Shown here one piece after another: positions 1-30,266 of a stretch of DNA of 64,000 nt. Position numbers and translations under genes: made by a program. This DNA is from Dehalococcoidia bacterium (GTDB lineage Bacteria > Chloroflexota > Dehalococcoidia > UBA2979): contig OZ253555.1 in NCBI GenBank assembly GCA_965262725.1, forward strand, positions 2,080,001-2,144,000. Reading direction: 5' to 3'. Position 1 is the stretch's first letter. Every line of letters begins with the position of its first letter. The notes beneath the pieces are model-generated. The model had not been told where the DNA came from and made no database searches. It saw only the letters and a program-made list of their open reading frames with translations.

Positions 1-1
1 G

Positions 2-175
2 CTCCCGCTCGTGCTGGTGCTCGTGATCCGCGCCACCAACCCGAACTACCTCACCGCCTTCTCGCAGCCGGCCGGCCAGCTCGTGCTCGGCCTCTGCCTG
101 CTCTCCGTCGCCTGCGGCTACATCGTGATGCTCAGGCAGGCCGCGCTCCCGGGCCCCGGGCGGCTGCTCCGGTGA
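2..175 (+). CDS. tadB: TadB-like type II secretion F-family membrane protein, 3' end only (runs off window)
   Basis: Frame 2 reads LPLVLVLVIRATNPNYLTAFSQPAGQLVLGLCLLSVACGYIVMLRQAALPGPGRLLR*, a typical TadB C-terminus; stop overlaps the tadC start (GTGA). Confidence 0.75.
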   Translation, partial: LPLVLVLVIRATNPNYLTAFSQPAGQLVLGLCLLSVACGYIVMLRQAALPGPGRLLR

Positions 176-1116
176 GCGCCCCGCTCGTCCTGGGGGGCCT
201 GCTCGGGGCCGGGCTCTGGCTGCTGGTGATGGCGCAGCCGCTGGGGCGGCCGCGGCCGGAGCTCTCCGCGAGGCTCCGCCGCCTCTCGGCCGAGGGGCGG
301 CTTCAGCTCGAGGAGAGCGCCCGGGCGAGCGGCGGGCCGATGTTCCGCTCGGCGCTGCTCGAGCGGACGCTCCGCCCCCTGATCGAGGACGCGGGCAGGG
401 CGGCGGGGACGCTGCTCGCGCGGCTCGGTATCGAGATAGCGGACCTCGACCGCCGGCTCGCCCTCGCCTCGCCCGGGATGAGCGCGGCCCAGTTCCGCGG
501 GCAGCAGCTCGCCACAGCCGCCGTGACCGGCCTGCTCCTCCCCGCCATGAACGCCGTCGGCGTCCATCCGCTCGGGCCGTGGCCGGTCTGGCTCTGGCTC
601 GGGGCCGCGGCGGCCGGCTTCGCGGCGCCGAGCTGGCAGCTCGCAGCGCGGCTCCGGGCGCGCCGCGCCCAGATCGCCGCCGAGCTCCCGGTCGCCCTCG
701 ACCTCTTCGTGATCGCGGCGTCGGCCGGGCTCTCGCCGGAGCAGGCGCTGGTCGAGGCGGGGCGCCGGCTCGAGGGCGTGCTGGGGGAGGCGCTGCGGGG
801 CGTCGTGCGCGAGGCGGGGCTCGGCGCGGCCGATGAGGCCGAGGGGCTGCGGGCTCTCGCCGAGCGCGAGGGGAGCGCCGAGCTCCGCTCGCTCGCCTCG
901 GCCTTCGCGCTCGCGCACCAGCAGGGGCTGCCGCTGGGGCCGGCGCTGCTCTCGCTCGCCGAGACGGTGCGCGAGCGCCGGCGCGCCGAGCTCGTCGAGG
1001 CGGGCGGCAAGGCCACCGTGCGGATGCTGCTCCCGGTGGCGCTCTTCATCTTCCCGGTCTTCCTGGTCGTGCTGCTCTATCCCGCCGGGGTGGAGCTGCT
1101 CGGCCTGGGCGGATAG
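172..1116 (+). CDS. tadC: TadC / T2SS F-family pilus assembly membrane protein
   Basis: ELPVALDLFVIAASAGLSPEQAL and KATVRMLLPVALFIFPVFLVVLLYP motifs; tad operon context. Confidence 0.9.
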   Translation: MSAPLVLGGLLGAGLWLLVMAQPLGRPRPELSARLRRLSAEGRLQLEESARASGGPMFRSALLERTLRPLIEDAGRAAGTLLARLGIEIADLDRRLALASPGMSAAQFRGQQLATAAVTGLLLPAMNAVGVHPLGPWPVWLWLGAAAAGFAAPSWQLAARLRARRAQIAAELPVALDLFVIAASAGLSPEQALVEAGRRLEGVLGEALRGVVREAGLGAADEAEGLRALAEREGSAELRSLASAFALAHQQGLPLGPALLSLAETVRERRRAELVEAGGKATVRMLLPVALFIFPVFLVVLLYPAGVELLGLGG

Positions 1117-1344: not shown

Positions 1345-1731
1345 GTGCTCCGCGACGAGTCGGGGCAGAGCACGGTCGAGCTCGCGCTCGCGATGCCGTT
1401 CCTGCTGGTGGTGCTCATCGGGGCGGTTCAGCTCGCGCTCGTGCAGCACTCCGGGCAGGTCGCCGCCACCGCGGCCCAGGAGGGGGCCCGGCTCGCCGCG
1501 GGCGAGAACCACACGCTCGCCGAGGGCGCGGAGCGCACCCGCGAGCTGCTCCAGGCGGGTCTCGGCACGCACGCGGCGGGCTTCACCGTCACGGCGGAGC
1601 ATCGCGGCGGGTCGGTCGTGACGACCGCGAGCGGCCACTACCCGCTCTTCATCCCCTGGGTGCGCGATCTCGCCCTCGCCGTCGAGGCGCGGGCGGAGGT
1701 GCGGCGGGAGGGGTTCCGCAGTGGTCCATGA
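1345..1731 (+). CDS. TadE-like minor pilin
   Basis: DESG|QSTVELALAMP and AAQEGAR TadE motifs. Confidence 0.88.
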   Translation: MLRDESGQSTVELALAMPFLLVVLIGAVQLALVQHSGQVAATAAQEGARLAAGENHTLAEGAERTRELLQAGLGTHAAGFTVTAEHRGGSVVTTASGHYPLFIPWVRDLALAVEARAEVRREGFRSGP

Positions 1732-2170
1732 TCCCCTGCCCCCCGCGCGCGCCCTCCACGCCGACCGCTCGGGGGGCGTGCTCATCGAGGCGGCGCTCGT
1801 CCTCCCGGTCGTGCTCGTGGTCGCCCTGGGGGTGGTGATGGCGGGGCGCGTCGCCCACGCCCGCATCGGCGTGGAGGCGGTGGCGCGCGAGGCGGGACGG
1901 GCGCTCGCCCAGGCGCCGTCGGCCCCGGAGGGGCTGCGAGATGCGCGCACGCGCGCCCTCGCCGCGGCGCGCGGTTACGGGCTCGACGAAGCGACGCTCC
2001 GGCTCGATCTCGACGCCGGCTCCTTCGCGCGGGGCGGGACCGTGAGCGCCCGCGCCTCCTACCGGGTCACGCTCTCGGACCTGCCGCTCCTCGGGCGGCT
2101 CGACGTCACCGTCGAGGCCTCGCACGCAGAGCGAGTCGAGCTCTACCGCAGCCGGGCGGCGCTCCCGTGA
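1721..2170 (+). CDS. TadE/TadF-like minor pilin
   Basis: DRSG|GVLIEAALVLP and AVAREAGRA motifs. Confidence 0.85.
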   Translation: MVHDPLPPARALHADRSGGVLIEAALVLPVVLVVALGVVMAGRVAHARIGVEAVAREAGRALAQAPSAPEGLRDARTRALAAARGYGLDEATLRLDLDAGSFARGGTVSARASYRVTLSDLPLLGRLDVTVEASHAERVELYRSRAALP

Positions 2171-2604
2171 CCGCGGTGCGGGCGGCTCTCCACGCGGACC
2201 AGCGCGGCGCGGCCTCGGTCATGGTCGCGCTCTTCCTGCTCGGGCTCGTCGCCGTCTCCGGCCTCGTCGCGGACGGCGGGATGGTGCTGGCCGAGCGCCG
2301 CAGCCTCCAGAACCTCGCCGACTCCGCGGCCGCGGCCGGGGCGATGCAGCTCGACGTCGCCGCCTACCGCCGATCGGGCGGGGCGGTCTCGCTCGACGGG
2401 CCGGAGGCGCGGCGCGCCGCCGCCGCCTCCATCCCGGCCGCACCCGGTGTCTCCTACGACGTGCGGGCGAGCTCACGGCTCGTCTCCGTGCGCGTCGAGC
2501 GCCGCGTTGAGCTCGCCTTCCTGGGCGTGCTCGGCCTCGGCCCGCTCACCGTGAGGGCGAGCGCCGAGGCCGAGCCGCGCGCGGGCGTGGGAGCACCGCC
2601 GTGA
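2167..2604 (+). CDS. TadG-like pilus assembly protein
   Basis: DQRG|AASVMVAL..GLVADGG..LQNLADSAAAAGA, TadG N-terminal signature. Confidence 0.85.
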   Translation: MTAVRAALHADQRGAASVMVALFLLGLVAVSGLVADGGMVLAERRSLQNLADSAAAAGAMQLDVAAYRRSGGAVSLDGPEARRAAAASIPAAPGVSYDVRASSRLVSVRVERRVELAFLGVLGLGPLTVRASAEAEPRAGVGAPP

Positions 2605-3200
2605 GGTGGGCCCTCCTGCTCGCGGCGCTCGCCGCCTGGGCGCTCGTCGCCGGGGCCTGCACCTGCCGGGGCGGGGACGGCGGCATGGACGAGCACCAGG
2701 CCCGTCCCCGCGCGGAGGGGATCGTGCCGCCGGTGACGGTGGTGCCCGTGACAGCGATCCGGCCGTACCCGCCGCCGGAGCCGGCGTCCGCGCCGACCAT
2801 TCCGCCCCCGCCCCCCGCCGAGCAGGAGCTGCTTCAGGCCTACGCGCGCTACTGGGAGCTCTACGCCGGGGCGCTGCTCGCACTCGACGGGAGCCGCCTC
2901 GGCGAGGTGATGACGGGCCCGCGCCTCGAGCGCGCCGAGCAGGAGATCGAACTGCTGACGCTCTCGGGCCACGCCGTCCGCATCGACGTCGAGAGCGCCC
3001 CCATCGTCGGAATGCTGGATGGAGAGGAGGCCGTCATCATCGACCGCTACCGGAACCAGAGCTACCTGGTCGACGCGGAGACCGGGCGACCGGTCGCCGC
3101 TCGCGGCGTCGCCAACACGGTCCACGCCACCGTCTCGCTCGTACTGGAGGAGGGCGCCTGGAAGGTGCGCGACTCGCTGAGGGAGGAGGCGTCCCGGTGA
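2601..3200 (+). CDS. Putative lipoprotein, NTF2-like C-terminal domain
   Basis: Signal peptide with lipobox-like VAGAC, Pro-rich linker, C-terminal LVLEEGAWKV; coupled to both neighbours. Confidence 0.65.
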   Translation: MRWALLLAALAAWALVAGACTCRGGDGGMDEHQARPRAEGIVPPVTVVPVTAIRPYPPPEPASAPTIPPPPPAEQELLQAYARYWELYAGALLALDGSRLGEVMTGPRLERAEQEIELLTLSGHAVRIDVESAPIVGMLDGEEAVIIDRYRNQSYLVDAETGRPVAARGVANTVHATVSLVLEEGAWKVRDSLREEASR

Positions 3201-4114
3201 GAGCGCGCGCATGCCTTCCGGCCGCGGCCCTCGCCTCAGCGGTGCTCCTGCTCGCCCCCGCCCCCGCCCCCGCCCGCGCGGACGTGGACGGGGGATACGA
3301 CCCCGACGCGGGCGGCCCTCAGGTCACGACCGAGGTCACGGTCACCTCGGGCCCCGACGGCGTCACGATCTTCATCGAGAGCGAGGAGATCACACCCGGC
3401 TCGGACGGGAGTCCCGGCGGCGACGACACCTCCGGCGACGGAACCCCCGGCAGCGGCGAGGCCCCCGAGTGCCAGGCGGCCCCCATCAACATCGGCCACA
3501 CCAGCACGACCTGGGTCGTGGAGGGACTCCAGGAGAACCCTGGCACCTACCCCTGGGGGGTGAACTGCGACGACGGATCCTTCGGCATCGCCTGGGTCCC
3601 GACCGGAACCTCCGGGACGCCCGAGGTCGTGGCGGGCGAGCCGCCGCTCCCGCCCATCGACCCCCAGGTGGTGCGGGACGCCGTCTTCCGGATCGTGTCG
3701 CTGCCGCAGATCGCGGTCGGCGTGAACCCGGCGGTCGGGCTCGTCGCGGTGGAGTCCTGGTTCTGGGTCGACGGCTACCACGGCCAGACGCTTCGGGGCT
3801 CCGCGACGCTCGGGCCCTACGACGTCGACGTGGAGATCACGGCCGTCCGCTACCTGTGGAACTGGGGGGACAGGAGCTCCCTCTCGACGTTCTCGCGGGG
3901 GCTCGCCTTCCCCAGGAAGAGCACCATCCGCCACCTCTACGAGCGCTCTTCGCTTCAGGCCGGCGGGAGCTACCGCGTGAGCCTCCAGATCACCTGGGAC
4001 GCGACCTACAGCGAGAACGGGGGCTCCTGGCTCCCGCTCGAGCCGATCACGCGCACCTACACGCGCTCCTACGCCGTGAGGCAGCTGCAGTCGGTCCTGA
4101 CGACGAACCGCTAG
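3197..4114 (+). CDS. Secreted protein with PKD-like C-terminal beta domain (Tad-associated)
   Basis: GTG at 3197 inside the 2606..4114 ORF; signal peptide ending ARA-D; GLVAVESWFW, YLWNWGD, HLYERSS motifs of the kind found next to tad genes in actinobacterial mobile elements. Confidence 0.7.
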   Translation: MRARACLPAAALASAVLLLAPAPAPARADVDGGYDPDAGGPQVTTEVTVTSGPDGVTIFIESEEITPGSDGSPGGDDTSGDGTPGSGEAPECQAAPINIGHTSTTWVVEGLQENPGTYPWGVNCDDGSFGIAWVPTGTSGTPEVVAGEPPLPPIDPQVVRDAVFRIVSLPQIAVGVNPAVGLVAVESWFWVDGYHGQTLRGSATLGPYDVDVEITAVRYLWNWGDRSSLSTFSRGLAFPRKSTIRHLYERSSLQAGGSYRVSLQITWDATYSENGGSWLPLEPITRTYTRSYAVRQLQSVLTTNR

Positions 4115-4127
4115 CGGGGAGCGCGCG

Positions 4128-7100
4128 GTGACGGGGGCGGTGCGGCCGCCCGGGCAGGGCGGCGCCGGCCGGAGGGAGCGGGAGCCCGGCGCGCGCGGCC
4201 TCCTCGCTCTCCTCGCCTCGGGCGTGCTGCTCGCGCTCGCGCTGCGGGCGTGGGGCGGCGCCCCGCGGCTCCCGGAGTGGGCCGAGCTCCGGCGGGGGCT
4301 CGGCGGCTCGGAGTTGGCCGACGCCGACCTCGTGACGGCCGCCACCGCCCTCTGCTGGCTCGTGCTCTGCTACCTCGCGCTCGCGGTCTCGCTCCGGCTG
4401 CTCGTGCTCGCGGCGGCGCGCGCGAGCGGCGGGGCCGCCTGGGCGCGCGCGGCGCTCCGCGTGAGCAACCTGGTCACCGTTCCGGCCGTCCGGCGCCTCG
4501 TCGACTCGGGCATCGGCGGAGCGCTGCTCGCCGCGAGCTGGCTCCCGCTCCCCGCTCCCGGGACGGCGCCGCCGCCCCCGGCCGCCTGGGTCGCGGCTGC
4601 GCCGGTCGCGGCGGAGGCGGCGGAGGCGGCGGCGGACGCCGCCCGGGCCCGGCACCACGCCTCGTACACGGTCGCTCCCGGGGAGCATCCCTGGGGGATC
4701 GCGCGGCTCTGCTACGGGGACGGCACCCGCGTCATCGATCTCTTCCGCGCCAACTGCGGCCGGGCGGCGGCGGGTGCCGGGGGATGGATCGACCCGCGGC
4801 AGATCGCGCCCGGCACGGTGCTCGCGGTGCCGCTCCCGACGCGCGATCTCAGCGCCCGTGACGGGCTCCTCACCTACCGTGTGCGGCCGGGCGACCATCT
4901 CTGGGGCATCGCCGAGCGCTGGCTGGGGGACGGCTTCCGCTGGGTGGAGATCTGGGAGCTGAACCGGGGCGCCGAGACGGAGGAGGGGCTCCGGTTCACC
5001 GACCCGAACCTGCTCCATCCCGGCCTCCTCCTCACGCTGCCGTGGGACGCCGTCCAGACCCTTCCGGCTCCGGAACCCGATCCCGCCCCGGCCGGGTCGG
5101 GAGGCGCGGCCGGGGCGCTCCCGGCGACGGCGCTCACGGAGGCCGGGCCGGCGGGCGGCGCGCGGGCCGAGAACGGCTCCGGGCCGGCGCCTGTGGGTCG
5201 GCTCGGCGACCCGCCCGGCGGGTCGCCTGCGGAGTGGCTGCATGCGGCGCGGCCGATCGCGCTCAGCGCCGGCGGCCTCGCCGTGGTGGGCGGCGCCGTC
5301 CTCTTCGTGCGGCGCCTGCACGGCGCGGGCTCGCTGCGCCTGCCGGGCCTCGCCGCACGGAGAGGGGAGGAGCCGGGCGACGCCGGTCTCGTCGCGCTCG
5401 TCGCCGGCGCCCTGGAGGCGACGCTCGCGGAGTGCGGCTTCCCCGGCACCGCCCCGCTGCTCGTTCGCGAGGGCGCGCGCCGCCTCGAGGTCACGGTGGC
5501 GTGCCCGGCCGGCGACGCCGGCGCGCTCCCCGCGCTCCGCCCCGAGCTCGAACGCCGCCTCGCGTGCGACGTCGGGGCGGCGGAGGCGGGGCCGGCGCAC
5601 GTGGTCCTCACGCTGTCGTGGCGCGGGCCTCCGGCGCCCCCGGCGATCCTCGCCCCGGATGCGCGGCCGGCGCTCGTCGTGCCGGCCGGCGCGGAGGGGG
5701 ACGACATCGTCTATCTCAACCTCGCGGCGGCGGGCGGCGTCACCGTCTCCGGCGACGACGCGGAGCGCGGGAGGCTGCTGCGCTCGTGGCTCGCGACGCT
5801 CTCGGTGATGCGCTCCCCGGGCGATCTCGTCTTCCGGGCGGACGCCGGAGCCGCGCGCCTGCTCGGGGCCGATGCCGGGCTGCCGCACTTCGCGGGTGGG
5901 GCCGCCGGCGGAAGCGCGGCGGAGCTCGCGGCGGAGCTGGACGAGGTGATCGTGAGCCGCGGGCAGGCCGGCGGTCCGGCCCGCCCCCTCGTCGCGATCG
6001 TCGACCTGGACGCGGGCGAGCGGGATCTCCCCCTGGCCGCGATGCGTCACGGGCCCGCGTGCGGCGTGCACGTCATCCAGAGCCTGCCCGCCGCGGGCGC
6101 CTCGGAGGGCGCGCCCGCCGCGGGCGCCTCGCTCGCCCTCGGCACGGCGGCCCCGGACGGCGCCGGCGACGGTGAAGCGCCGCCCGGCGCGATCACGCTG
6201 CGCATCGGGCGCTTCCCGCCCCTCCGGCTGGATCCGGTGCGCGTGCGGCGCGACGCCTCGGCGCGGTGGAGCGAGGGCGCCCCGGTCGCGGCGGCGGCCG
6301 GTCACGCCGCTTCCGAGCCCGGCGAACCGCTCGCGCGCCGGACCGCGAGGGAGGGCCTCCCCGTGGGAGGGCGCCCACCCGCCGTCGACGGGTCGTGTGG
6401 CCGCGCCCCGGGCGGCGACCCGGTCGCCGGGACGGACGGCGGTGCCGGCGTCGCGCCCGAACAGCTCCCGGAGGCGGGTGTGCCGGACGCCCTCGAGCCG
6501 GACGCCCGCGGTCCGGGGCCCTCCACGATCGCGGGGAACGGCGCGCGCGATGCCGCGCCCGGAGATGATGCGCGCGCCGACCCGTCCGCACCGCTCGAGC
6601 CGTCGGCCGGCGCCCGGGACGTGAGCGGGCCCGGGGCCGGCGCGGGGCCGGCGAGTATGGCCGGCGCGCCGGATGGGCCGGCACCCGCGCCGGAGCTGCG
6701 CGGGCCGGCCGCCCCGCCCCGGGCGGGCGGGACGACCCGCCAGGGCGCCCTCTTCACGAGCGGGGATGCCGCATCGCCCGCCGCGGGCGCCACGGCCGGC
6801 GCCGGGCCGGCGTTCACGATCCGCTGCCTGGGGCCGTTCGAGGTGTGGCACGGGGGCGTCCGGATCACCGGCTGGCCGCGCGAGAAGTCGCGCGAGATCC
6901 TCGCCTTCCTCGCGGCGCACGGCGGAGCGGCGGTTCCCCGCGAGTCCGTCGCCGAGGCGCTGTGGCCGGGCGAGCCGTGGGACGCGAGCCTCCGGCACGT
7001 GATGACGAACGTGGCGAGCAGCCTGCGGACCGTCCTGCGCTCCGCCGCCGGCGACGATGCCCTGCAGCCGGTGGTCGGGGCGCGCCAGCGGTACCGGCTG

Positions 7101-7559
7101 CAGGCGCATCTCTTCCGCATCGACCTCGACGCCTTCGACGCCGCGCTCGCCGGCCCCGAGGCGCTCGCCGAGTACGAGCGGGCCGCGGCCCTCTACCGGG
7201 GCGACTTCCTCGAGGGGGAGCTCTTCGAGTGGCTCGGCGGCTACCGCAGCGACTACGGCCGGCGGCTGGTCGACGCGGCCGGCCGCGCCGCGTCGATCGC
7301 CGAGGAACTGGGCGAGCGGGAGCGGGCGGCTCGCCTCTACGGCGTGATCCTCGAGCGTGAGCCCGCCGACGAGCCGGCGGCGCGCGGCCTGATGCGCCAG
7401 CGAGCCGCCGCCGGGCAGCCCAACGAGGCGCGCCGGGTCTTCAACCAGCTGACGGAGGCGCTCCGGCAAGAACTCGACGACCCGCGGGCACGTCCCGGAC
7501 CGGAGACGACGGCGCTCCTCGCCGGGCTCGTGGCCGGGGAGGGGAACGCGGCGAGATGA
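4128..7559 (+). CDS. Membrane-anchored LysM-LysM / FtsK-like / winged-helix-BTAD (SARP-type) regulator
   Basis: Two LysM repeats (YTVAPGEHPWGIA; YRVRPGDHLWGIAERWLG..PNLLHPG), a TM helix, then IRCLGPFEV..REILAFLAAH..EALWP and a BTAD (YRGDFLEG..EPADEPAARGLMR..RPGPET). Confidence 0.85.
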   Translation: MTGAVRPPGQGGAGRREREPGARGLLALLASGVLLALALRAWGGAPRLPEWAELRRGLGGSELADADLVTAATALCWLVLCYLALAVSLRLLVLAAARASGGAAWARAALRVSNLVTVPAVRRLVDSGIGGALLAASWLPLPAPGTAPPPPAAWVAAAPVAAEAAEAAADAARARHHASYTVAPGEHPWGIARLCYGDGTRVIDLFRANCGRAAAGAGGWIDPRQIAPGTVLAVPLPTRDLSARDGLLTYRVRPGDHLWGIAERWLGDGFRWVEIWELNRGAETEEGLRFTDPNLLHPGLLLTLPWDAVQTLPAPEPDPAPAGSGGAAGALPATALTEAGPAGGARAENGSGPAPVGRLGDPPGGSPAEWLHAARPIALSAGGLAVVGGAVLFVRRLHGAGSLRLPGLAARRGEEPGDAGLVALVAGALEATLAECGFPGTAPLLVREGARRLEVTVACPAGDAGALPALRPELERRLACDVGAAEAGPAHVVLTLSWRGPPAPPAILAPDARPALVVPAGAEGDDIVYLNLAAAGGVTVSGDDAERGRLLRSWLATLSVMRSPGDLVFRADAGAARLLGADAGLPHFAGGAAGGSAAELAAELDEVIVSRGQAGGPARPLVAIVDLDAGERDLPLAAMRHGPACGVHVIQSLPAAGASEGAPAAGASLALGTAAPDGAGDGEAPPGAITLRIGRFPPLRLDPVRVRRDASARWSEGAPVAAAAGHAASEPGEPLARRTAREGLPVGGRPPAVDGSCGRAPGGDPVAGTDGGAGVAPEQLPEAGVPDALEPDARGPGPSTIAGNGARDAAPGDDARADPSAPLEPSAGARDVSGPGAGAGPASMAGAPDGPAPAPELRGPAAPPRAGGTTRQGALFTSGDAASPAAGATAGAGPAFTIRCLGPFEVWHGGVRITGWPREKSREILAFLAAHGGAAVPRESVAEALWPGEPWDASLRHVMTNVASSLRTVLRSAAGDDALQPVVGARQRYRLQAHLFRIDLDAFDAALAGPEALAEYERAAALYRGDFLEGELFEWLGGYRSDYGRRLVDAAGRAASIAEELGERERAARLYGVILEREPADEPAARGLMRQRAAAGQPNEARRVFNQLTEALRQELDDPRARPGPETTALLAGLVAGEGNAAR

Positions 7560-8101
7560 CGGCGCGGCGCCCGTTCGCGTGCGGCTCCACGCTCTCGGGC
7601 ATCTGGGCGCCGGTCGCGCTCGCGGGAGCGGCGGCCGCTGCGGGGGCCGCGCACGGGCTGCGCGGGCGGGAGCCGGCCGACATCGTGCTGACGGCCGTCT
7701 TCGGGGCGATCCTCCTGGTGCTCGCCTGGACCGACGTCCGGCGCATGGTGATCCCGAACCGCGTCGTCTATCCCGCGCTCGCGCTGGCGCTCGGCGTCTC
7801 CCCCGCCTGGACCGGGCGCGGCCCCGCAGCGGCGCTGGCCGGGGCGATCGGAGCGCTCGTGGTGCTGGCTCTCGTCCGCCGGCTGAGCCGCGGCGGCCTC
7901 GGCGGCGGGGACGTGAAGCTGGCCGCGCTGGTCGGAGCGGTCGTCGGCTACCCGGGAGTGCTCCTGGCCGGGCTCGTGACCGCGACCGCGGGAGGCGCCG
8001 TGGCAGCGGCTCTGGTCGTGGCGGGGCGAGCCGGCCGGGGCACCCGTATCCCGTACGGGCCGCTGCTCTCCCTGGGGGCGATGACGGAGTTGCTCCGATG
8101 A
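7556..8101 (+). CDS. A24 family prepilin peptidase (TadV/CpaA-like)
   Basis: WTDVRRMVIPN, GGLGGGDVKLA and IPYGPLL motifs. Confidence 0.9.
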   Translation: MTARRPFACGSTLSGIWAPVALAGAAAAAGAAHGLRGREPADIVLTAVFGAILLVLAWTDVRRMVIPNRVVYPALALALGVSPAWTGRGPAAALAGAIGALVVLALVRRLSRGGLGGGDVKLAALVGAVVGYPGVLLAGLVTATAGGAVAAALVVAGRAGRGTRIPYGPLLSLGAMTELLR

Positions 8102-10951: not shown

Positions 10952-11187
10952 GTGCCGGCCATCCTCATTCCCGCCATCTCGTGCACTCGATCCCTTCGAG
11001 CAGGGGCGCAAGTGGCCGGATTCTCCCAGAGCGTCGAGCGTATGTCAGTGCCACGCGGGTGAACAGGCGGCCACTGGCTGGACATCGGGGACTTCGCGCG
11101 ATCTGCCGGTTCGCGACAGGCTACTTCCCTCTACAGGAGGCAGCGGGTGTCTCGGCGCTCCGGGCGCATTGGCTAGAACGAGCCCCC

Positions 11188-23031: not shown

Positions 23032-24140
23032 GTCACATCGACATCGAGCAGCTGAAGCGCGCCAGCCCGATCGCCGCGGTCGTGGAGCGGCACGGGGTCG
23101 AGCTGCGCCGCGCGGGGACGCACCTCAGCGGGCGCTGTCCCTTCCACGAGGACCGGAACCCGAGCTTCTGCGTCTACCCCGAGACGGAGTCCTTCCACTG
23201 CTTCGGGTGCGGCGCGCGCGGCGACGTGATCGACTTCGTGCGCCGCGCCTCGGGGCTCGGCTTCCGCGAGGCGCTCGAACGCCTGGGCCGGACGGGCGCT
23301 CCGCACGCGGCGTCCGGGCCGCCACCGCCGCCGGCACGTCGCGAGCGGGTCCCGGCCCTCTCGCTCGACGACCGGCTGATGCTGACGGCGGCGTCTGAGC
23401 TCTACCACGAGACGCTGCTGGAGACGCCGGAGGCGCTCCGCCACCTGGAGGGGCGCGGGATCCCGGCGTGGCTCACGCGCTCGCGCCGCCTCGGCCTCTC
23501 GGACGGCCGCCGGCTCGTCCCCTACCTGAAGCGCCGCCGGCTCAGCCTGAAGCGGGCGCAGGAGCTCGGCCTGCTCCACCGGGGCGGCGCCGAGACGATG
23601 ACGGGGCGCATCGTGATCCCCGATCTCCGCGGTTCGCACTGCGGCTGGATGGTCGGGCGCGCGACGTCCGAGGAGCGCACGCCGAAGTACCGCGGCCTCG
23701 CGCTGCCGCGGCCGCTGCTCGGCTACGAGCGCGGCCGCCGCCGCCTCTTCGTGACCGAGGGCCCCTTCGACTGGCTGACGCTCGCCGGATGGGGGCTTCC
23801 CGCCTGCGCGCTGCTCGGAACCCAGCCCGGCGGCGGCGCGATGCGCCTGCTCGAGCGCGCTCGCTCGGTGGTGCTGGTGATGGACGGAGACGATCCGGGG
23901 CGCCGGGCGGCGGCGGCGCTCGCCGGCCTGCTGGACGGGCGCGCCCGCGTCCTGGAGCTCCCCCCGGGCGTCAAGGACGTGAACGAGCTGGGCACGCGAC
24001 CCGGTGGCCGCGAGACGTTCTTCCGGCTGCTCGACGCGGAGAGGGAGGCGCAGGCCGACATGGAGGGAGGCGCACATGGGGACGCACAGGGAAGTGCACG
24101 TGGGGACGTTCCGGGGGACGGCGATGCGCCCTCCCGCTGA
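23028..24140 (+). CDS. DNA primase (CHC2 zinc finger + Toprim)
   Basis: CPFHEDRNPSF..FHCFGCG..GDVIDF; FVTEGPFD; MDGDDPG; KDVNE. Confidence 0.92.
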   Translation: MSHIDIEQLKRASPIAAVVERHGVELRRAGTHLSGRCPFHEDRNPSFCVYPETESFHCFGCGARGDVIDFVRRASGLGFREALERLGRTGAPHAASGPPPPPARRERVPALSLDDRLMLTAASELYHETLLETPEALRHLEGRGIPAWLTRSRRLGLSDGRRLVPYLKRRRLSLKRAQELGLLHRGGAETMTGRIVIPDLRGSHCGWMVGRATSEERTPKYRGLALPRPLLGYERGRRRLFVTEGPFDWLTLAGWGLPACALLGTQPGGGAMRLLERARSVVLVMDGDDPGRRAAAALAGLLDGRARVLELPPGVKDVNELGTRPGGRETFFRLLDAEREAQADMEGGAHGDAQGSARGDVPGDGDAPSR

Positions 24141-26646
24141 GAGCTTGCATCTTGCCGAGGTGGTGCCGCCGCGCGACCTGGAGGGGGGCATCACGGCCGC
24201 CCGGGGCATGCTGCGCGCGCTCGCCGGGGAGCGCCTCTCGCTCGAGATCGTCGTCGACGCGGAGGGGCCGCGCTGGTACCTGCGCGCGGAGGCGCGGGCG
24301 GACCTCGAGCGTGCCCTCGCGCAGCTGAGGGCCGCCTACCCGCAGGCGCGCGCCGAGGAGATCCCCCCGGGGCGGCCCGAGCTGGATCCGGCTCGACCGC
24401 TCGGAGAGGAGCGATCCGTACTCGTCGAGCTCCGCCACCTGGCCGAGCCGGCGCTCCCCCTCCGCGCCGACTGGCGCCACGACCCCGATCCGCTCACCGG
24501 GCTCGTGGCGGGGATCGCGCCGGATGCGACGGAGCGCGTCGTCGTGAGGCTCTCGCTCGCTCCCGCTCCGCGGGGCGCCGACGCGCGTATCCGCCGCCGC
24601 GCCGCGCCCGCCGTCCGGGAATGGCGCGAACCGTCGGCGCCGCGCGGGCCGAGCCCCGTCCCGATGGTCGCCCTGCTCGCGCTCGTCGCCGGCGGGCTCC
24701 AGGGCTGGCGCTGGTGGGTGGAGGGCGAGTGGGAGCTCCTCGCCGCGGGAGGCGCGGGCGCTCTCGTCGCGCTGCCCGCCGCCGCCGCGCTCGCCGTCCG
24801 CCTCCGGCGCCGCCCCGACCCGCTCCCGCCGCAGCTCGTCGAGCAGAAGCTCGCGGCGCCGCTCGCCGCCGCGAGGCTTCAGGTGCTCGCGATCGGCGGC
24901 CGGCACGCGGACGGCGGGCGGCTGCGCCGGCTCGCGTCGCAGGCGGCCTCCTCCTACGAGGGCTACGACGGCGCCGCGGGCGGCGGCCTCCGGCCCGGGC
25001 GCGCGCGCCCGGCGCGCCGCGGCAAAGCGGGGCGACTGCCCCTTCTCCTCAACACCGACGAGCTCGCCGCGCTCTGGCACCTGCCCGACGAGGCGGCCGC
25101 GCCGGCCGGCGTTCGGCGCACGACCGCCCGGCGCCTCGCGCCCGCTCCGGGCCATGCGCGGCGGGGGGCGCGCGTCGGCCGGGCAGACGCCGGCGGCCGG
25201 TCGGTCCCGGTGTACATGCCGCAGCCGCTCCTCCACCGCAACCAGCTCATCGTCGCGAAGACCCGCCGCGGCAAGTCGACGCTGCTCCGGCACCTCGCCG
25301 CCTCCGTGATGGAGGGGGTGGGCCCGGAGGAGACGGCGCTGGTCGTGGTCGACCCGCACCAGGACCTCGCCGAGGCGGTGCTCGCGGCCGTCCCGCCGGA
25401 GCTCTCGGAGCGCACGACCTACCTCGACTTCGCGAACCCGGAGCGGCCCGTCGGCCTCAACCTCCTGGACCGGGGCCTCTTCCCGGACCGCGACCGCACG
25501 ACCGAGCACGTCGTCACGATGATGAACAGGCTCTGGCCGGCCAACTGGGGGCCGCGCATGGAGGGGGCGCTCCGCGCCTCGCTGCTCGCGCTGCTCGACG
25601 CGAACTTGCAGTACGGGCGGGACGAGCAATTCACGCTGCTCGACGTGGCGCCGCTTCTCACCGACCGGGAGTTCCGCGAGGGCGTGCTCGACCAGGTGCG
25701 GGACCCGGCGGTGCGCGCCTGGTGGCGCGACAACTACGACCGCGTCGGGCGCGTGCTGCAGCAGCAGACGGCGAACCCGGTCACCTCGAAGATCGGCCGC
25801 TTCACGGTCACCGAGGCCTCGCGCCTGGTCTTCGGGCAGGCGCGCTCCACCTTCGATCCGCGCGAGATCGTGCGGGAGGGCGGCGTGCTCGTCGTCAACA
25901 CCGCCACGGGTGCGCTCGGCGAGGGCGCCTCGGCGCTCGTCGGGGCGACGCTCCTCAACCTGCTCGGGCTGCTGGTCGAGGAGCAGGTGGCGCTCCCGCC
26001 GGAGCGCCGGCGCAAGGTCATCGGCCTGGTCGACGAGTCGAGCACGCTCGGCGCGGTCGACTACCCGCGGATGCTCTCCGAGCTCGGCAAGTACGGCGCG
26101 AGCTTCGTGCTGGTGACGCAGTCGCTCGCGAAGCTCGACGCCGTCGACCGCAACCTCGCGCCGACGCTTTTCGCCAACACCGACGGGCTCACCGTCTTCG
26201 GGGTGAGCGCCGAGGACGCGAGGCGCCTCGTGCCCGAGCTCGGGAGCGGTATTGAGGTCGCTGACCTGGTCTCGCTCGACGACTTCACGTGCTACGCGCG
26301 GTGGTGGGACGGGCGCACCCGGCCTCCGGCCTTCTCGTTCCGGGTCGACCCGCCACCGGCCGCCCTCCCCGGGCGTGCCGAGGCGATCGCCCGCCGCTCG
26401 GCGGAGCGCGTGGGACGGCCGCGCGAGCTCGTGGCGCGGGAGGTCGACGAGGCGCTCGCGGAGCGCTCGCCCGCCGGGCGGCGGGGCCGGGCGCGGGCGT
26501 CCGGGGAGGAGCTGGCCGGGCGGGCGATCGAGGGAGCCGTGCGGGTCGCGCTGGATGCGGGGGGCCACGAGGCGGGCGATACGTCCGGGACCGCAGCGCC
26601 TGCGCGCCGCGGCCGCGGCAACGCCCAGAGGGGGGCGGCCACGTGA
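24076..26646 (+). CDS. VirD4/TraD-like type IV coupling protein
   Basis: RBS GGAGGGAGG; two TM helices; Walker A AKTRRGKS, VVVDPHQDL, GLNLLD, LVDES, SELGKYG..TQSL. Confidence 0.85.
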   Translation: MGTHREVHVGTFRGTAMRPPAESLHLAEVVPPRDLEGGITAARGMLRALAGERLSLEIVVDAEGPRWYLRAEARADLERALAQLRAAYPQARAEEIPPGRPELDPARPLGEERSVLVELRHLAEPALPLRADWRHDPDPLTGLVAGIAPDATERVVVRLSLAPAPRGADARIRRRAAPAVREWREPSAPRGPSPVPMVALLALVAGGLQGWRWWVEGEWELLAAGGAGALVALPAAAALAVRLRRRPDPLPPQLVEQKLAAPLAAARLQVLAIGGRHADGGRLRRLASQAASSYEGYDGAAGGGLRPGRARPARRGKAGRLPLLLNTDELAALWHLPDEAAAPAGVRRTTARRLAPAPGHARRGARVGRADAGGRSVPVYMPQPLLHRNQLIVAKTRRGKSTLLRHLAASVMEGVGPEETALVVVDPHQDLAEAVLAAVPPELSERTTYLDFANPERPVGLNLLDRGLFPDRDRTTEHVVTMMNRLWPANWGPRMEGALRASLLALLDANLQYGRDEQFTLLDVAPLLTDREFREGVLDQVRDPAVRAWWRDNYDRVGRVLQQQTANPVTSKIGRFTVTEASRLVFGQARSTFDPREIVREGGVLVVNTATGALGEGASALVGATLLNLLGLLVEEQVALPPERRRKVIGLVDESSTLGAVDYPRMLSELGKYGASFVLVTQSLAKLDAVDRNLAPTLFANTDGLTVFGVSAEDARRLVPELGSGIEVADLVSLDDFTCYARWWDGRTRPPAFSFRVDPPPAALPGRAEAIARRSAERVGRPRELVAREVDEALAERSPAGRRGRARASGEELAGRAIEGAVRVALDAGGHEAGDTSGTAAPARRGRGNAQRGAAT

Positions 26647-28466
26647 TCGCGGCGGGCGCGCACCTCGCCCGCGCGCTGGAGTGGGTGGCGCGCCTGCCGC
26701 TCCTCGGCGAGCCGGAGCTCGCGCGGCTGCTCGGCGTCGACGAGCCGGACGCGCGCGCGCTGCGCCTCGCGCTCGAGCGGCTCGGGTGGGTCGAGTGGGT
26801 CGTGGCCCGGGACGGTGGGCTCGCGCCCGATCGACTCAGCTTCGTGCGGGAGGCGGCGCTCCCGGCGCTCGCGCGGCTGCTCCCCGTGGAAGAGGACGCG
26901 CTCGCCGCCCGCGTCCCGGCGCGCCGCGGCGACATCCTGGCGCGGATCGTGCGTGCGGGGACGACGGCCCGGGTCAACCGCTTCCTCGCGGAGCTCGCGG
27001 CCAACCCGGGCATTCCGCATGTGGAGCTGGAGGATGCACGCTCGCTCCCGCTCGCGATGCTGCGGAGCGAGCGCTGGTGGCCGCGCGGCGTCGAGGGCTA
27101 CGGCTGCCTCCGGGCGGGCTCGCTGCGGGCGCCGTTCTTCGTGGCCTGGGACCGGGAAGGGGCGCCCGACGCGTACCGCCGCCAGCGGGCGCTCGGCTGG
27201 GCGGCGCCCACACTGGGTGCGGAGGCGCGCTGGGGTGCGGAGGGGCTGCCTCCGGTCCTCCTCGTCCGCCGCGGCCGCCGCGGCCGGGCGGTCTGGGAGC
27301 GCGCGCTCGGGCGCGCGGCGGAGCGCGCGGCAAGGCGGCCGCCCGGCGTCCTGGTCGCGGATGCGGACGAGATCGCAGCGGCCGGGCCGGCCGGGTCGAT
27401 CTGGTCGGACCCGGTCGCCGCACGCGCAGGAAGCCTGCTGGAGCAGCTCGGGTGGGGCGCGCCGCCGCCGCTCGGACGCGTCTGTGTGACGGGGGATCTG
27501 GGTGGCGTGGGCCGCCCGCCGCCGGGCGAATCGCTCAGGCGGTGGGCGCCGCGCGCGGCGGCGGGCTCCGCCGCCGGCATCGGCGAGCGCGTTGCCGCGA
27601 TCGCGATGACGACCGACCCGGACGAGAAGCGCCTGCTCGAGTGGATCGGGCGCTGGCCGCTGCTCAGCATCCCGCAACTGGCGAGCCTCGCCTCCCTCGA
27701 CGCGGCGGCCGTCGAGCGGCGGGTGGAGCGAATCCTCCGCCTGGGCATCGCGCGCTTCGATACGGACGGACAGCCGGACGAGTCCCCGGCGAAGCAGCTT
27801 CTGCTCACGCCGCTCGGCCTGCTGCTGCTCGCCCGCCGGGACGGGGTGCCGGAGGGTCACTACGCGCTCTTCGCGGGCGTGAGCGCCCCCGACCCGGCGG
27901 GAGATGCCCCCTCGGTCCGCCACCGGGCCCACCAACTCGGCCTCAACGGCGTCGTTGCACGGCTCGCGGCGGACGCGCGCGCCGCCGGGGGCCGGCTCGT
28001 GGTCTGCCGCAACGAAGCGCAGTCGACCAGCCGCTTCCGGCACGAAGGGCGGGCTGCGTGGATCCGGCCCGACGGTTCGGGCGTGGTCGCCCTCGGTGGA
28101 GGCCGCGTGCCGTTCCTGCTCGAGTACGACCGCGGGACGCTCGACTCCGGTGACTTCGCGGCGAAGTTCGGCGGCTATGCGCGCTACTACGCGGCCCGCG
28201 CCTGGCGCCGTGACTTCGATGCCGAGCCCCTGTTGCTCTTCGTCTGCATCGATGACCGGGCGGAGGAGCACGTGGTGCGCGCCGCCCGGCGTGCCGCACG
28301 CGAGTCCGCCCTCCGCCTACCCCTCCTGGCCACGACCGGGTGGCGGTCGGGTCGGGGCCCCCGGAATCCGAGAGGATTGCTGGGGCCCGTCTGGGGCCCT
28401 TCCGGTGCATCGGGCGAGGGGCGCCGGTCGGTGGGGCTGCGCGTCCCGCGGGCAGAGAGCCAGTGA
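26643..28466 (+). CDS. Replication-relaxation (Replic_Relax) family protein with tandem domains; candidate relaxase
   Basis: C-terminal copy HRAHQLGLN..IRPDGSG..FLLEYDRGT; N-terminal copy degenerate (RVNRF..VEGYG..FFVAWDREG). Confidence 0.8.
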   Translation: MIAAGAHLARALEWVARLPLLGEPELARLLGVDEPDARALRLALERLGWVEWVVARDGGLAPDRLSFVREAALPALARLLPVEEDALAARVPARRGDILARIVRAGTTARVNRFLAELAANPGIPHVELEDARSLPLAMLRSERWWPRGVEGYGCLRAGSLRAPFFVAWDREGAPDAYRRQRALGWAAPTLGAEARWGAEGLPPVLLVRRGRRGRAVWERALGRAAERAARRPPGVLVADADEIAAAGPAGSIWSDPVAARAGSLLEQLGWGAPPPLGRVCVTGDLGGVGRPPPGESLRRWAPRAAAGSAAGIGERVAAIAMTTDPDEKRLLEWIGRWPLLSIPQLASLASLDAAAVERRVERILRLGIARFDTDGQPDESPAKQLLLTPLGLLLLARRDGVPEGHYALFAGVSAPDPAGDAPSVRHRAHQLGLNGVVARLAADARAAGGRLVVCRNEAQSTSRFRHEGRAAWIRPDGSGVVALGGGRVPFLLEYDRGTLDSGDFAAKFGGYARYYAARAWRRDFDAEPLLLFVCIDDRAEEHVVRAARRAARESALRLPLLATTGWRSGRGPRNPRGLLGPVWGPSGASGEGRRSVGLRVPRAESQ

Positions 28467-28649
28467 GGCCCCGTCGAGAGGCCGGGGGGGCGCGCGCTCA
28501 CGAGCGGGTCCGCGGGCGGCGCAGTGGGTCACGGGGGCGACCGGCGCTGCCTCCGACCGTGGAGTACCTTTGTCGTGAGTACGCAGCGGTCGGGTGGGCG
28601 ATCTGGGAGCGTGAACGCGCGCGCCGGGAGGGCAGGGACGGGAAGCACG

Positions 28650-30266
28650 ATGGGCAGAACTGAGCGAGCGGTCGGGTACGTCCGCGTCTCCACCGAGGAA
28701 CAGGCCGACGGGCACTCGCTCGATGCCCAGCGCCGCGAGATCGCACGCCACTGCGAGCGGCACGGGTACGAACTCGTGCGGATCTACGCGGACGAGGGCG
28801 TGAGCGCGCACACGGAGAAGATCGAGAAGCGGCCGATGCTAGCCGCGCTCCTCGACGCCTCCTCCCGCCGCGAGTTCGATGTCGTGGTGGTGCACACGAT
28901 TGATCGCTGGGCGCGGAACGTTGGTGTCCAGCGGCAGGCCCTGCAGTACCTCGGTCAATTCAACGTCGGCTTCGCCAGCGTCACCGAGAACATCGACTTC
29001 ACGACGCCAGCGGGGAAGCTGATGTTGACGATGATCGGGGGCGTCTCGGAGTTCTTCTCCGATCAACTCGCCGTCCACGTGAGCAAGGCGTTCCGGGAGC
29101 GGGCCGAGAACGGACTGCCGCCGGGTCCCGTGCCCTTCGGGTACGTGGCGCCGAGTCCCGGCGCGATCCCGGGCGTGGTCCCCGGGGAAGGGGAGGCGGT
29201 CGCCGAGGTCTTCCGGCAGCGGGCGCAGGGGGAGTCGTACGGCGCCATCGCCCGGTGGCTGAACGCGGAGGGCTTCGAGACGCGCGGGCACAACCCGGTC
29301 TTCACGTCGTTCGCGGTGAAGGACATGCTCGCCAACGTCTTCTACCGCGGTGCGGTTCTGTACAAGGGGACCGAGTTCGCGGGCGCCCACGAGGCGCTGG
29401 TCGACGACGACCTCTTCCGGCAGGTGCAGGCGAAGCGGGGGGTGCGGCGACAGCGGCGCCTCGTGGTCGGTGGCCGGGGGATCCTCCAGGGGCGGGTGAG
29501 CTGCGGGCACTGCGGAAGGGCGCTCCAATCCGACCGTGATCACCGGGGACGGCCGATGTACCGGGAGCGTCACGGCGAGCGGTGCAGCACGAACAACCGA
29601 TCCCTCATGGCCGCGGGCGTCGACGAGCAACTCGGTGCGATCTGGAAGTCGGTGCAGTTCTCGACGGACTGGCGCGACCGGATGGCGGAGATCCTCTCAG
29701 CCGGTTACGACGGTCCGAGCGCCGAGGACCTGGCCGAGAATCGTCGGCGCATCGCCCGGGCCTATGCCGACGGGGGACTCAACGAAACCGAGTACGAGGT
29801 GCGCCTCGCCGCGATCGACAAGCGCGCCCGGGACGTGCTCCGCCCCTCGGGCCCCGCGTTCGACGAGGCGGCGGAGTTGTTCTCGGACATGCCTGCGCTG
29901 TGGGAGCGGGCCGCGCCGGAGGAGCGGCGGCGGCTGGTGGCTCCCCTGATCGAGCGCGTCTACCTCGACATCGACTCGAGGCGCATCGGCGCGATCACGC
30001 CGACACCGGAGTTCAAGGCGCTGATCGACCATGCGCTCGAGCCGACGGCCGATCCCGAGGTCGCGCTGATCCCGCCGGAATCGGCTGAAGACGTTAGCAG
30101 TTGGAGATCCTGGAGATGGAGGTCAGGTGACATAACTGCCGACGACGGGGTCGATTTGAATCTGGACGAAAACGCTGACCTAGTAAACAGTTGGAGATGG
30201 TGGAGACGGGGGAGAATCGAACTCCCCGTCCAGAGAGCGTCCGTCACGGATCTGCTACGGGTGTAG
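28650..30266 (+). CDS. Large serine recombinase (ssrA-targeting integrase)
   Basis: AVGYVRVSTEEQ catalytic motif, DRWAR, PFGY, CGHCG zinc ribbon; the C-terminus overlaps the tmRNA 3' end. Confidence 0.93.
   Translation: MGRTERAVGYVRVSTEEQADGHSLDAQRREIARHCERHGYELVRIYADEGVSAHTEKIEKRPMLAALLDASSRREFDVVVVHTIDRWARNVGVQRQALQYLGQFNVGFASVTENIDFTTPAGKLMLTMIGGVSEFFSDQLAVHVSKAFRERAENGLPPGPVPFGYVAPSPGAIPGVVPGEGEAVAEVFRQRAQGESYGAIARWLNAEGFETRGHNPVFTSFAVKDMLANVFYRGAVLYKGTEFAGAHEALVDDDLFRQVQAKRGVRRQRRLVVGGRGILQGRVSCGHCGRALQSDRDHRGRPMYRERHGERCSTNNRSLMAAGVDEQLGAIWKSVQFSTDWRDRMAEILSAGYDGPSAEDLAENRRRIARAYADGGLNETEYEVRLAAIDKRARDVLRPSGPAFDEAAELFSDMPALWERAAPEERRRLVAPLIERVYLDIDSRRIGAITPTPEFKALIDHALEPTADPEVALIPPESAEDVSSWRSWRWRSGDITADDGVDLNLDENADLVNSWRWWRRGRIELPVQRASVTDLLRV

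Follow-up and report, generated by a model that had tools for sequence, protein, structure and literature searches.

In Dehalococcoides, genomic islands integrated at ssrA, the gene for transfer-messenger RNA (tmRNA), pile up in tandem downstream of that gene, carry vinyl chloride reductase genes among their cargo, and were proposed in 2011 to be integrative mobilizable elements (IMEs), with their transfer left to an unknown host or phage system (PMC3146451, here and below as far as its accessible text goes). Here, we analyze a stretch of 64,000 nucleotides (hereafter, the window) from a Dehalococcoidia bacterium, which corresponds to positions 2,080,001-2,144,000 of a genome available as a single 3.67 Mb contig (the source genome, G000). 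Positions 1-30266 of the window appear to make up the rightmost quarter of an integrative conjugative element (ICE) of 118.7 kb inserted in the tmRNA 3' end of this high-GC Chloroflexota genome, a reading to which we assign a probability of roughly 0.72. As an ICE, the element assembles familiar parts into a new combination in a new host, joining an ssrA-specific serine integrase to a FATA-like type IV secretion system (T4SS) with a MOB_C relaxase, and to a Tad pilus.

The resemblance to the Dehalococcoides islands centers on the integrase. Both systems place a large CcrB-like serine recombinase (DsiB in Dehalococcoides) at the island edge, the recombinase open reading frame (ORF) overlaps the ssrA 3' end (by ~70 bp for DsiB and by 69 nt here), and a direct repeat of that 3' end marks the far boundary (PMC3146451). 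Further, both hosts belong, by the record titles of relatives, to the same class of Chloroflexota, and a 50% identical integrase homologue adjoins tmRNA in a Dehalococcoidaceae record (L047), the likeness to DsiB being otherwise one of description. In the accessible text of that paper, however, the Dehalococcoides islands are described without conjugation genes, whereas a relaxase, VirD4, a T4SS, and a Tad pilus are present here. The six-gene DsiA/RecF/ParB/Mom module of those islands, in which a tRNA-like gene is embedded, is likewise not beside the integrase, where the relaxase is found instead, and neither Pfam nor ARAGORN detected a small serine recombinase, ParB, or tRNA-like gene beside it.

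The T4SS itself resembles the MPF_FATA class (pCF10 Prg/Pcf, ICESt3), with which it shares a putatively CD1110-type VirB4, a PrgI/VirB3-like protein, a VirB6-like protein, a VirB8-like protein with an NTF2 fold, a VirB2-like pilin, and VirD4, as well as the lack of VirB7, VirB9, and VirB10. It departs from that class in that VirB4 is encoded by two ORFs and scores 315 bits against its best match, conju_CD1110, just under the 325-bit cut-off; in that no PrgK/CHAP/SLT hydrolase or LPXTG adhesin was seen; and in the attached Tad operon. In the accessible text of PMC5357655, FATA systems are reported with VirD4 and MOB_P, MOB_Q, or MOB_C relaxases, and PF13814 is the MobC of CONJscan. The Replic_Relax protein, which a preliminary description of this DNA, made from the sequence alone, had set apart from the canonical relaxases, hence belongs to the recognized MOB_C superfamily. 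Streptococcal IMEs of class 8 carry VirD4, a MOB_C (PF13814) relaxase, and a serine integrase in the same order, but they are small, mobilizable, and without a T4SS, whereas here the trio closes a full T4SS operon (PMC5357655).

A comparable pairing of T4SS and Tad genes stands on a linear plasmid of Embleya sp. NBC_00896 (NZ_CP108778.1; Actinomycetota), where the 274-300 kb region is annotated with PrgI, VirB4-like, coupling, replication-relaxation, and NlpC/P60 proteins, and where, ~6 kb further, SAF/CpaB, CpaF, TadB, TadC, TadE, TadG, and a large BTAD regulator are found. The proteins are 27-40% identical to their counterparts here (VirB4, 40%; CpaF, 39%), and the best plasmid matches of VirB4 are in general actinobacterial, at 40% identity. 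The Embleya locus differs in its order (T4SS, then tad), in having an NlpC/P60 hydrolase, and in lying on a plasmid with no ssrA integration, which MOB-suite typed as non-mobilizable. This pairing, which includes the BTAD giant, indicates that the association of these gene families is old and recurrent, and it bears out the earlier statement that Tad loci accompany conjugation genes, here a T4SS and Replic_Relax, on some actinobacterial elements. A Candidatus Chlorohelix plasmid also bears the T4SS (VirB4, 32% identity), with no tad genes found within 20 kb of VirB4 and a CpaF-like gene ~42 kb off. A tblastn search of plasmids with CpaF was dominated by proteobacterial Tad loci and was set aside as uninformative on linkage.

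Type IVb pili are required for the transfer of R64 (the thin pilus) and of PAPI-1. These elements, like the one described here, encode a type IV filament beside the T4SS on the transferring element itself, and they use it for mating contact; they are diderm systems with PilV-type adhesins, whereas the present filament is a Tad (type IVc) pilus with a putative role in a monoderm-type system. In Frankia, tad-like and VirB4/VirD4 genes are each "associated with prophage regions" (PMC2266912, accessible text). We found no published description of a Tad-T4SS ICE or of a T4SS-bearing ssrA island in Chloroflexota in a literature search that left subscription journals mostly uncovered, and there is no such element in the accessible portions of PMC3429521, PMC9513070, PMC2266912, and PMC4027160.

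Element boundaries and attachment sites

Families were assigned by Pfam and NCBIfam scans, ORFs were judged by codon-position G+C, tmRNA was identified by ARAGORN and Rfam, and structure matches were obtained by Foldseek on AlphaFold models. The search for integrase relatives returned 80 loci, and the presence of VirB4 and CpaF was counted in 41 genomes including G000, with "family-type" denoting at least 65% identity for VirB4 and E <= 1e-100 for CpaF.

The tmRNA gene of G000 is single-copy, with its 3' end occupied by the element. Its 3'-end 17-mer, TGGTGGAGACGGGGGAG, has exact copies at just two other sites in the genome, both just after a paralogous serine recombinase gene or remnant. Specifically, the copy at 1,991,470 lies within the tail of a paralogous serine recombinase ORF that is itself preceded by a Replic_Relax gene, and the copy at 1,056,974 lies directly behind a recombinase remnant. 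The former is the displaced ssrA 3' copy that the preliminary description had expected upstream. As the left attachment (att) site, attL, it delimits with attR an integrated unit of 118,728 bp (genome 1,991,470 to 2,110,198), rather than the 30 kb to which the element had at first been confined, the left end lying 88.5 kb outside the window.

From 1,991,487, the attL copy of the 17-mer is followed by GCTCTGGCTCCAAGATCTCCAAC, with the arm CTCCAAGATCTCCAAC at 1,991,487-1,991,509. The reverse complement of the distal part of GCTCTGGCTCCAAGATCTCCAAC, GTTGGAGATCTTGGAG, matches the attR arm, GTTGGAGATGGTGGAG, at 14 of 16 positions, and the arm motif GTTGGAGATnnTGGAG has four exact occurrences in 3.67 Mb, three of them at att regions. 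When the attR-side and attL-side arms are joined, the resulting attP has its axis of symmetry at the AG that closes the shared 17-mer, a layout that, on our reading, matches what would be expected for a large serine integrase, with the crossover probably at that terminal AG. The insertion leaves ssrA intact, the tmRNA 3' end being supplied by the element's own copy, and SmpB and ordinary host genes resume to the right of ssrA, where G+C is 65-69% versus 75-80% in the tad and T4SS blocks. In two genomes of the same genus, G003 and G004, ssrA is empty and no element genes lie within 20 kb of its 3' side, a result that speaks against a tad block fixed at this position in relatives, which the preliminary description had considered.

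The integrase, relaxase, coupling protein, and VirB4-type ATPase, that is, the genes by which an ICE is recognized, occupy one co-oriented block (17934-30266) within these att sites, and the earlier view of an element integrated at ssrA and fully equipped with conjugation genes is thereby upheld. In the integrase, R54-V55-S56 is invariant in five of five aligned homologues and the catalytic Ser is kept; homology to relatives stops near residue 520, beyond which the ORF tail reads through attR and 69 nt into ssrA. From the att sites and from what is known of these families, a transfer cycle can be proposed. The integrase would recombine attL with attR at the AG of the 17-mer and so release a circle, its attP carrying two inverted arms, with the sites observed and the activity predicted. 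The MOB_C relaxase would nick a putative oriT (origin of transfer), VirD4 would pass the DNA to a VirB4-powered channel, and the primase would prime the complementary strand. The Tad pilus, co-inherited with the T4SS, would most likely give the cell-cell contact for mating, a role to which we give about even odds.

Additional att-like sequences were observed. The arm motif is found a second time, as GTTGGAGATCCTGGAG, at 30100-30115, 90 bp upstream of the attR arm and inside the integrase ORF tail. The sequence after it is loosely similar to the ssrA end, and this copy may be an accessory binding site or what is left of an old att arm. Far from ssrA, the 17-mer with a single mismatch stands beside an arm at genome 1,041,528-1,041,570, as in an attL, and 15 kb away an integrase remnant is succeeded by a 19-nt copy of the ssrA end (1,056,705-1,056,992). 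Both are 1 Mb from ssrA, and the pair looks like a rearranged piece of an ssrA island array. In a relative, G006 (L030, L033-L037), ssrA is accompanied by two further 17-mer copies at distances of 20.9 and 43.8 kb, whose arms are of two types, and the ssrA-side arm pairs with the farther site and not the nearer, unlike simple tandem integration. Finally, among contigs from public runs, the listed pieces of X5, X6, and X8 stop at 30227 while others start at 30235-30245, and X9 shows a depth of 41.2 for the piece 30205-33932 versus 2 for the piece 28976-30215, with loose ends at 30194. These breaks fit alternative ssrA 3'-end junctions in natural populations; we draw no conclusion from them, as the runs are assembled contigs, which would break at repeats in any case, and depth does not give the share of cells.

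The T4SS and Tad operons

The two co-oriented, tightly overlapping operons of the preliminary description, one for Tad and one for the T4SS, were confirmed by the Pfam and NCBIfam scans, and all of the genes it had named in positions 1-30266 are present, on the + strand, at or near where it had placed them (Table 1). Start and stop codons overlap (GTGA or ATGA at TadB/TadC, pilin/PrgI, and VirD4/relaxase; 8 nt between the two VirB4 parts), which indicates tight operon coupling. Parts of its gene list did not stand. The ORF taken as virB8-like (19213-19905) is a wrong-frame, Arg/Gly-rich translation and was replaced by 19307-19855, the unassigned ORF 20454-21191 is the VirB4 N-terminal domain, the Flp pilin at 1149-1334 had not been listed, and the tad operon starts off the window. 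A start of the VirB4 ATPase ORF at 20767 (20767-23031) was likewise rejected, its first 167 residues being wrong-frame.

Among the T4SS proteins, the VirB8-like model (15-sequence alignment; mean predicted local distance difference test score, pLDDT, 80) has as its best PDB matches TcpC (3ub1), an IcmL-like protein (5cnl), PrgL (7aed), and R388 TrwG, at E 3e-5 to 7e-4, the first three being within 2e-4, with generic NTF2 enzymes after these. The VirB4 ATPase ORF aligns to the CD1110 profile from profile position 182 onward only. The top 12 Foldseek matches of the ORF 20454-21191 model (pLDDT 67) are all R388 TrwK/VirB4, weak ones at E 4e-3 to 2e-2, and the N-domain and ATPase are fused in frame in one G000 paralogue (an 843-aa ORF, L133:7481-10009). 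We therefore read VirB4 as an N-domain gene plus an ATPase gene with a conserved split. The two ORFs (20454-23031 and paralogues) overlap, shifted by one frame, a layout compatible with a programmed frameshift as well as with a split gene that has been conserved. The VirD4 paralogues in G000, 73% identical, lie beside every relaxase copy. With NCBIfam, the relaxase, VirB6, the VirB8-like ORF, and the two tad ORFs without a family received no assignment. As the preliminary description had noted, VirB9 and VirB10 are missing, with no Pfam match in any ORF scanned, and VirB7 was not seen in the T4SS set of these ORFs.

The tad operon starts at genome 2,076,066 with CpaB, a CpaE-like protein, CpaF, and TadB; two BTAD regulators precede CpaB, and the genes from these regulators through TadB span genome 2,072,904-2,080,175. 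Together with the genes inside the window, these make the monoderm Tad/Flp set complete (Flp, A24 peptidase, CpaF/TadA, TadB, TadC, TadE/F/G, CpaB, and CpaE/TadZ-like). No secretin was found in the Tad locus by the Pfam scans, as expected without an outer membrane. TadC has paralogues, 76% identical, at three other places in G000. The two conserved ORFs without a family are kept in the tad copies of G003, and the first of them also in G042. The 1143-aa LysM-BTAD protein, which could be a wall- or contact-sensing regulator, has a paralogue closing every tad copy, and a giant of the same kind likewise closes the tad locus of the Embleya plasmid (L137:38784-41719).

Relatives and the linkage of tad with the T4SS

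The closest relatives of the integrase and T4SS come from records titled Dehalococcoidia, Chloroflexota, Chloroflexia, or Tepidiformaceae, in agreement with the Chloroflexota-like host first suggested. Across the 80 loci, tmRNA or smpB lies directly after the integrase in 18, and VirD4 plus relaxase lies directly upstream of it in 8, with VirB4 as well in 7 of the 8; these 8 all fall within the set of 38 loci whose titles are of Chloroflexota type, and 5 of them have tmRNA/smpB directly downstream. Integrase, relaxase, and VirD4 occur at ssrA in G006 and G018, the latter with the T4SS too, and an integrase remnant is found at ssrA in G008. The G006 VirD4 is a C-terminal piece, and a T4SS was not found in the next 80 kb.

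The module order recurs in relatives. In G041, the same 17-mer and its own inverted arms bound a 54,127 bp unit that reads, in order, ArdC/primase module, BTAD regulator, tad, T4SS, integrase, and ssrA. In G042, tad, T4SS, integrase, and tmRNA fit in ~27 kb, with ~2 kb from the BTAD giant to VirB6. By tblastx, G000 is colinear with both, with its ArdC module at 2,005.5-2,009.9 kb, then tad, then the T4SS. In G003, all three T4SS copies have a co-oriented tad copy upstream, ~8, 19, and 75 kb away. Family-type VirB4 was detected in 7 of the 41 genomes and family-type CpaF in 5 of those 7.

G000 itself holds at least six copies of this ICE family, including the ssrA element. By tblastn, five further T4SS-primase-VirD4-relaxase blocks lie near 447-458, 707-718, 1612-1623, 1891-1902, and 2616-2627 kb, at 72-76% protein identity to the ssrA copy, alongside fragments and three further complete tad operons. 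The five blocks end in tyrosine integrases in three cases and in a 417-aa protein without a Pfam match in two, which indicates that one conjugation backbone has been joined to different integration modules. Tad and T4SS protein distances (five proteins each) across eight elements, four in G000, two in G003, and one each in G041 and G042, gave a Mantel r of 0.97 (p 0.0008, 5000 permutations) and the same clusters, with these eight elements representing ~5 independent lineages. This pattern supports, without proving, the co-divergence of the two modules.

Weighing the alternatives

Several observations weigh against the reading of an ICE with a dedicated Tad pilus, beginning with the few independent lineages behind the Mantel test. 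In the assembled contigs, this strain showed neither a circular form of the element nor an unoccupied site. Neither an oriT nor a recombination directionality factor (RDF) was identified, with no search aimed at oriT made, and no peptidoglycan hydrolase (VirB1/PrgK/CHAP/NlpC type) was found in the ORFs scanned, in keeping with the earlier remark on VirB1. The host makes peptidoglycan, as penicillin-binding proteins and Mur ligases are present, and the element's sole wall-linked domain is the LysM of the 1143-aa protein. VirB4 is split into two ORFs in 14 of the 15 copies examined. The element is swollen by more than 10 insertion sequence (IS) copies, a group II intron reverse transcriptase, and a second VirD4/relaxase/serine-recombinase trio, and a recombinase fragment sits between tad and the T4SS. 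In the relatives, the attL of G042 was not found within 69 kb upstream, G016 and G018 (87-90% complete) yielded no family-type CpaF, the T4SS-integrase element of G016 has no tad in the 26 kb upstream, and G008 has family-type CpaF with no VirB4 match.

The first group of these points bears on whether the element arrived as an ICE and has since lost excision or transfer, leaving an immobilized remnant. The IS load and the nested trio do suggest accretion or decay: the element is about twice the size of its G041 counterpart and holds IS nests, the intron reverse transcriptase, and nested mobile elements, and the split VirB4 and the unseen hydrolase and RDF could be taken the same way. Yet the backbone ORFs are all open, no core gene is interrupted by an IS, and the att arms and 17-mer are intact. 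Further, as 14 of 15 copies share the VirB4 split, the divided form is probably the one that functions. We consider a remnant unlikely, if not negligibly so.

The gap between the operons (8102-17933) is IS-rich, variable, and cargo-bearing, and the recombinase fragment within it raises the question of whether the whole is composite. A T4SS-only ICE (window ~12.3 or 17.5 to 30.2 kb) would then have entered ssrA beside an older tad island, the fragment at 11188-12000 being the old integrase and its att site having been lost to IS. The fragment is 89% identical at the nucleotide level to the integrase of an older island at 1.99 Mb (genome 1,990,098-1,990,947), three IS elements or fragments adjoin it, T4SS-only integrase elements exist in G016 and G018, and tandem ssrA islands, the norm in Dehalococcoides (PMC3146451), occur also in G006 with its two further 17-mer copies. 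The fragment, however, matches integrase residues 72-351 only, without the catalytic Ser56 and the C-terminal part, and no relaxase precedes it, unlike every intact integrase of the family. An att site between tad and the T4SS, which the preliminary description had named as decisive, was looked for, and none was found with the 17-mer (up to three mismatches) or the arm motif beyond chance or IS-internal matches. Specifically, the 17-mer search gave matches at 16242 (in an IS) and 23416 (in the primase), three being found versus 0.56 expected, a level reached in 3 of 100 shuffles, and an arm-like match at genome 2,095,382 was rejected as internal to a three-copy IS. Moreover, tad and the T4SS lie within a single att pair in G041, are 2 kb apart in G042, and co-diverge. 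Accretion of this kind seems improbable to us, and we read the fragment as probable debris in a variable region.

A different doubt concerns the pilus: the ICE may be real and Tad a cargo serving host adhesion, aggregation, or DNA uptake, with no part in transfer, a possibility that we place somewhat short of even. Tad loci are widely horizontally mobile adhesion islands. In Frankia, tad operons have been described in prophage-like regions (PMC2266912). The T4SS has its own VirB2-like pilin, two G000 copies have tad and T4SS 35 and 96 kb apart, and the T4SS-integrase elements without tad in G016 and G018 imply that Tad is not indispensable to the module. Against a cargo role, the ssrA copy, copy 1, the three G003 copies, G041, and G042 all have tad upstream of the T4SS and in the same orientation; the two modules co-diverge; the same pairing, BTAD giant included, recurs in another phylum at only ~40% identity; and R64 and PAPI-1 need type IVb pili for their transfer. 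The ICE with a Tad pilus in a candidate contact role remains our preferred reading.

Features of the element and its surroundings

Table 1. Features in the element-bearing part of the window (window positions)
Feature	Position	Strand	Evidence
TadB (T2SSF family), 3' end	1..175	+	stop at 173-175, frame 2; T2SSF Pfam match on upstream part
TadC (T2SSF)	172..1116	+	PF00482 E 1.5e-13
Flp/Fap pilin, 61 aa	1149..1334	+	PF04964 E 3.2e-11, 43.3 bits vs cut-off 32.2
Two TadE-like pseudopilin genes	1345..1731 and 1721..2170	+	PF07811 E 2e-11 and 4e-9
TadG-like	2167..2604	+	PF13400 E 4.6e-9
Two conserved tad-operon ORFs, no family	2601..3200 and 3211..4131	+	no Pfam or NCBIfam match
LysM + C-terminal winged-helix/BTAD (SARP-like) protein, 1143 aa	4128..7559	+	BTAD 1.3e-11, LysM 9e-7, Trans_reg_C 5e-4 (under cut-off)
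Prepilin peptidase (A24, TadV/CpaA type)	7556..8101	+	PF01478 E 9e-18
Cargo: trypsin-like protease with SHOCT + DUF4352	8342..10243	-	Pfam
Cargo: RDD/SHOCT membrane protein	10250..11011	-	Pfam
Serine recombinase fragment	11188..12000	+	inside ORF 10981-12231
IS1595 fragment, behind recombinase fragment	11973..12491		Pfam
IS element (DUF772/DDE_Tnp_1 transposase)	12723..14131	-	>10 G000 copies, ~99.4% identity
IS element (DDE_Tnp_1_4 transposase)	14921..16975	+	99.95-100% identical to copies at genome 2,002,222 and 3,077,443
VirB6/TrbL-like polytopic membrane protein	17934..19076	+	Pfam TrbL_4 E 4e-12
VirB8-like, N-terminal transmembrane segment + NTF2-like domain	19307..19855	+	frame plot of third-codon-position G+C (GC3); AlphaFold model; Foldseek
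VirB2-like T4SS pilin, 76 aa	19869..20099	+	PF18895 E 5e-9
PrgI-family (VirB3-like)	20096..20494	+	PF12666 E 1.2e-7; start refined
VirB4 N-terminal domain, separate ORF	20454..21191	+	Foldseek; in-frame fusion in paralogue
VirB4 ATPase part	21184..23031	+	NCBIfam conju_CD1110 E 8.7e-94, 315 bits vs cut-off 325; Pfam TraG P-loop
DnaG-type primase (CHC2 zinc finger + Toprim)	23028..24140	+	Zn_ribbon_DnaG E 2e-25
VirD4-type coupling protein	24124..26646	+	TraG-D_C + TrwB_AAD_bind, just over cut-offs
Replic_Relax (MOB_C-type) relaxase, N-terminal helix-turn-helix region	26643..28466	+	PF13814 E 3e-15, 57.1 bits vs cut-off 25.3
Large serine integrase (Resolvase, Recombinase, Zn-ribbon)	28524..30266	+	Pfam; homologue alignment
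attR	30190..30214	.	P-arm GTTGGAGATGGTGGAG + 17 nt TGGTGGAGACGGGGGAG (30198-30214) repeated at attL
ssrA (tmRNA), intact, tag GERQLALAA; integration target	30198..30550	-	ARAGORN; Rfam RF00023 135.9 bits, model 1-374/374

From left to right, the element backbone runs attL, ArdC and a second primase, nests of cargo, defense, and IS genes, BTAD regulators, tad, the gap, the T4SS, integrase, and attR. All of the ORFs scanned in the 118.7 kb are mobile, defense, or accessory, with a cargo of multi-copy IS, the group II intron reverse transcriptase, ArdC, the second primase, a type I restriction-modification system, HicB, KAP and STAND NTPases, and a tubulin-like/VWA pair. The last of these consists of a 1179-aa Tubulin_2 protein adjoining a 788-aa protein with a weak VWA match (genome 2,060,059-2,065,957; L001:59-5957), and may have a partition or cytoskeletal role.

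The second trio, inverted, comprises a VirD4-like gene, Replic_Relax, and a serine recombinase that is 28% identical to the ssrA integrase (genome 2,045,064-2,053,333; L002:5064-13333). In three other copies of the ICE family, a copy of this VirD4-like gene is cut at one and the same place, about residue 330, and lies inverted just upstream of VirB6, with the relaxase kept in two. The trio resembles an IME-like passenger that has become a fixed part of the family backbone.

G000 as a whole is rich in IS, with families of more than 10 copies at 99-100% identity (in the window, at 12723-14131, 14921-16975, 37848-39512, and 48070-49017), and an IS nest lies at genome 2,018,974-2,030,900. A further ~142 kb (genome 1,849,500-1,991,470) separates attL from the genes that flank ssrA in G003, and it holds an older relaxase and serine integrase (1,987,846-1,991,577) and a T4SS copy with a tyrosine integrase (~1,889-1,905 kb). 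The ssrA flank of G003 maps to G000 1,829,817-1,849,500, a position that implies that the variable DNA on the downstream side of ssrA in G000 amounts to ~260 kb.

Implications

No transfer machinery is known for the DsiB-integrated ssrA islands of Dehalococcoides, whose route has been unknown since 2011. The element described here, with the same class of host, the same target and overlap, and the same kind of repeat, plus a full relaxase/VirD4/T4SS set, is a candidate for how islands of this type move or once moved. Its defined att sites (17-nt overlap, AG core, and inverted arms of the form GTTGGAGATnnTGGAG) permit a direct recombination assay.

More tentatively, the Tad pilus may be the integral mating-pair organelle of a distinct monoderm conjugation lineage, found in Chloroflexota ICEs and actinobacterial plasmids and comprising a FATA-like T4SS, a MOB_C relaxase, a Tad operon, and a LysM-BTAD giant regulator; its ssrA versions would be self-transmissible counterparts, and possibly helpers or ancestors, of the Dehalococcoides islands. 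We hold this possible, at somewhat less than even odds. The co-inheritance of tad with a monoderm T4SS in several diverged copies, in three further genomes, and on a distant actinobacterial plasmid suggests that type IVc pili may have a part in conjugation among monoderm-type bacteria with a cell wall, for which little is known of how mating contact is made.

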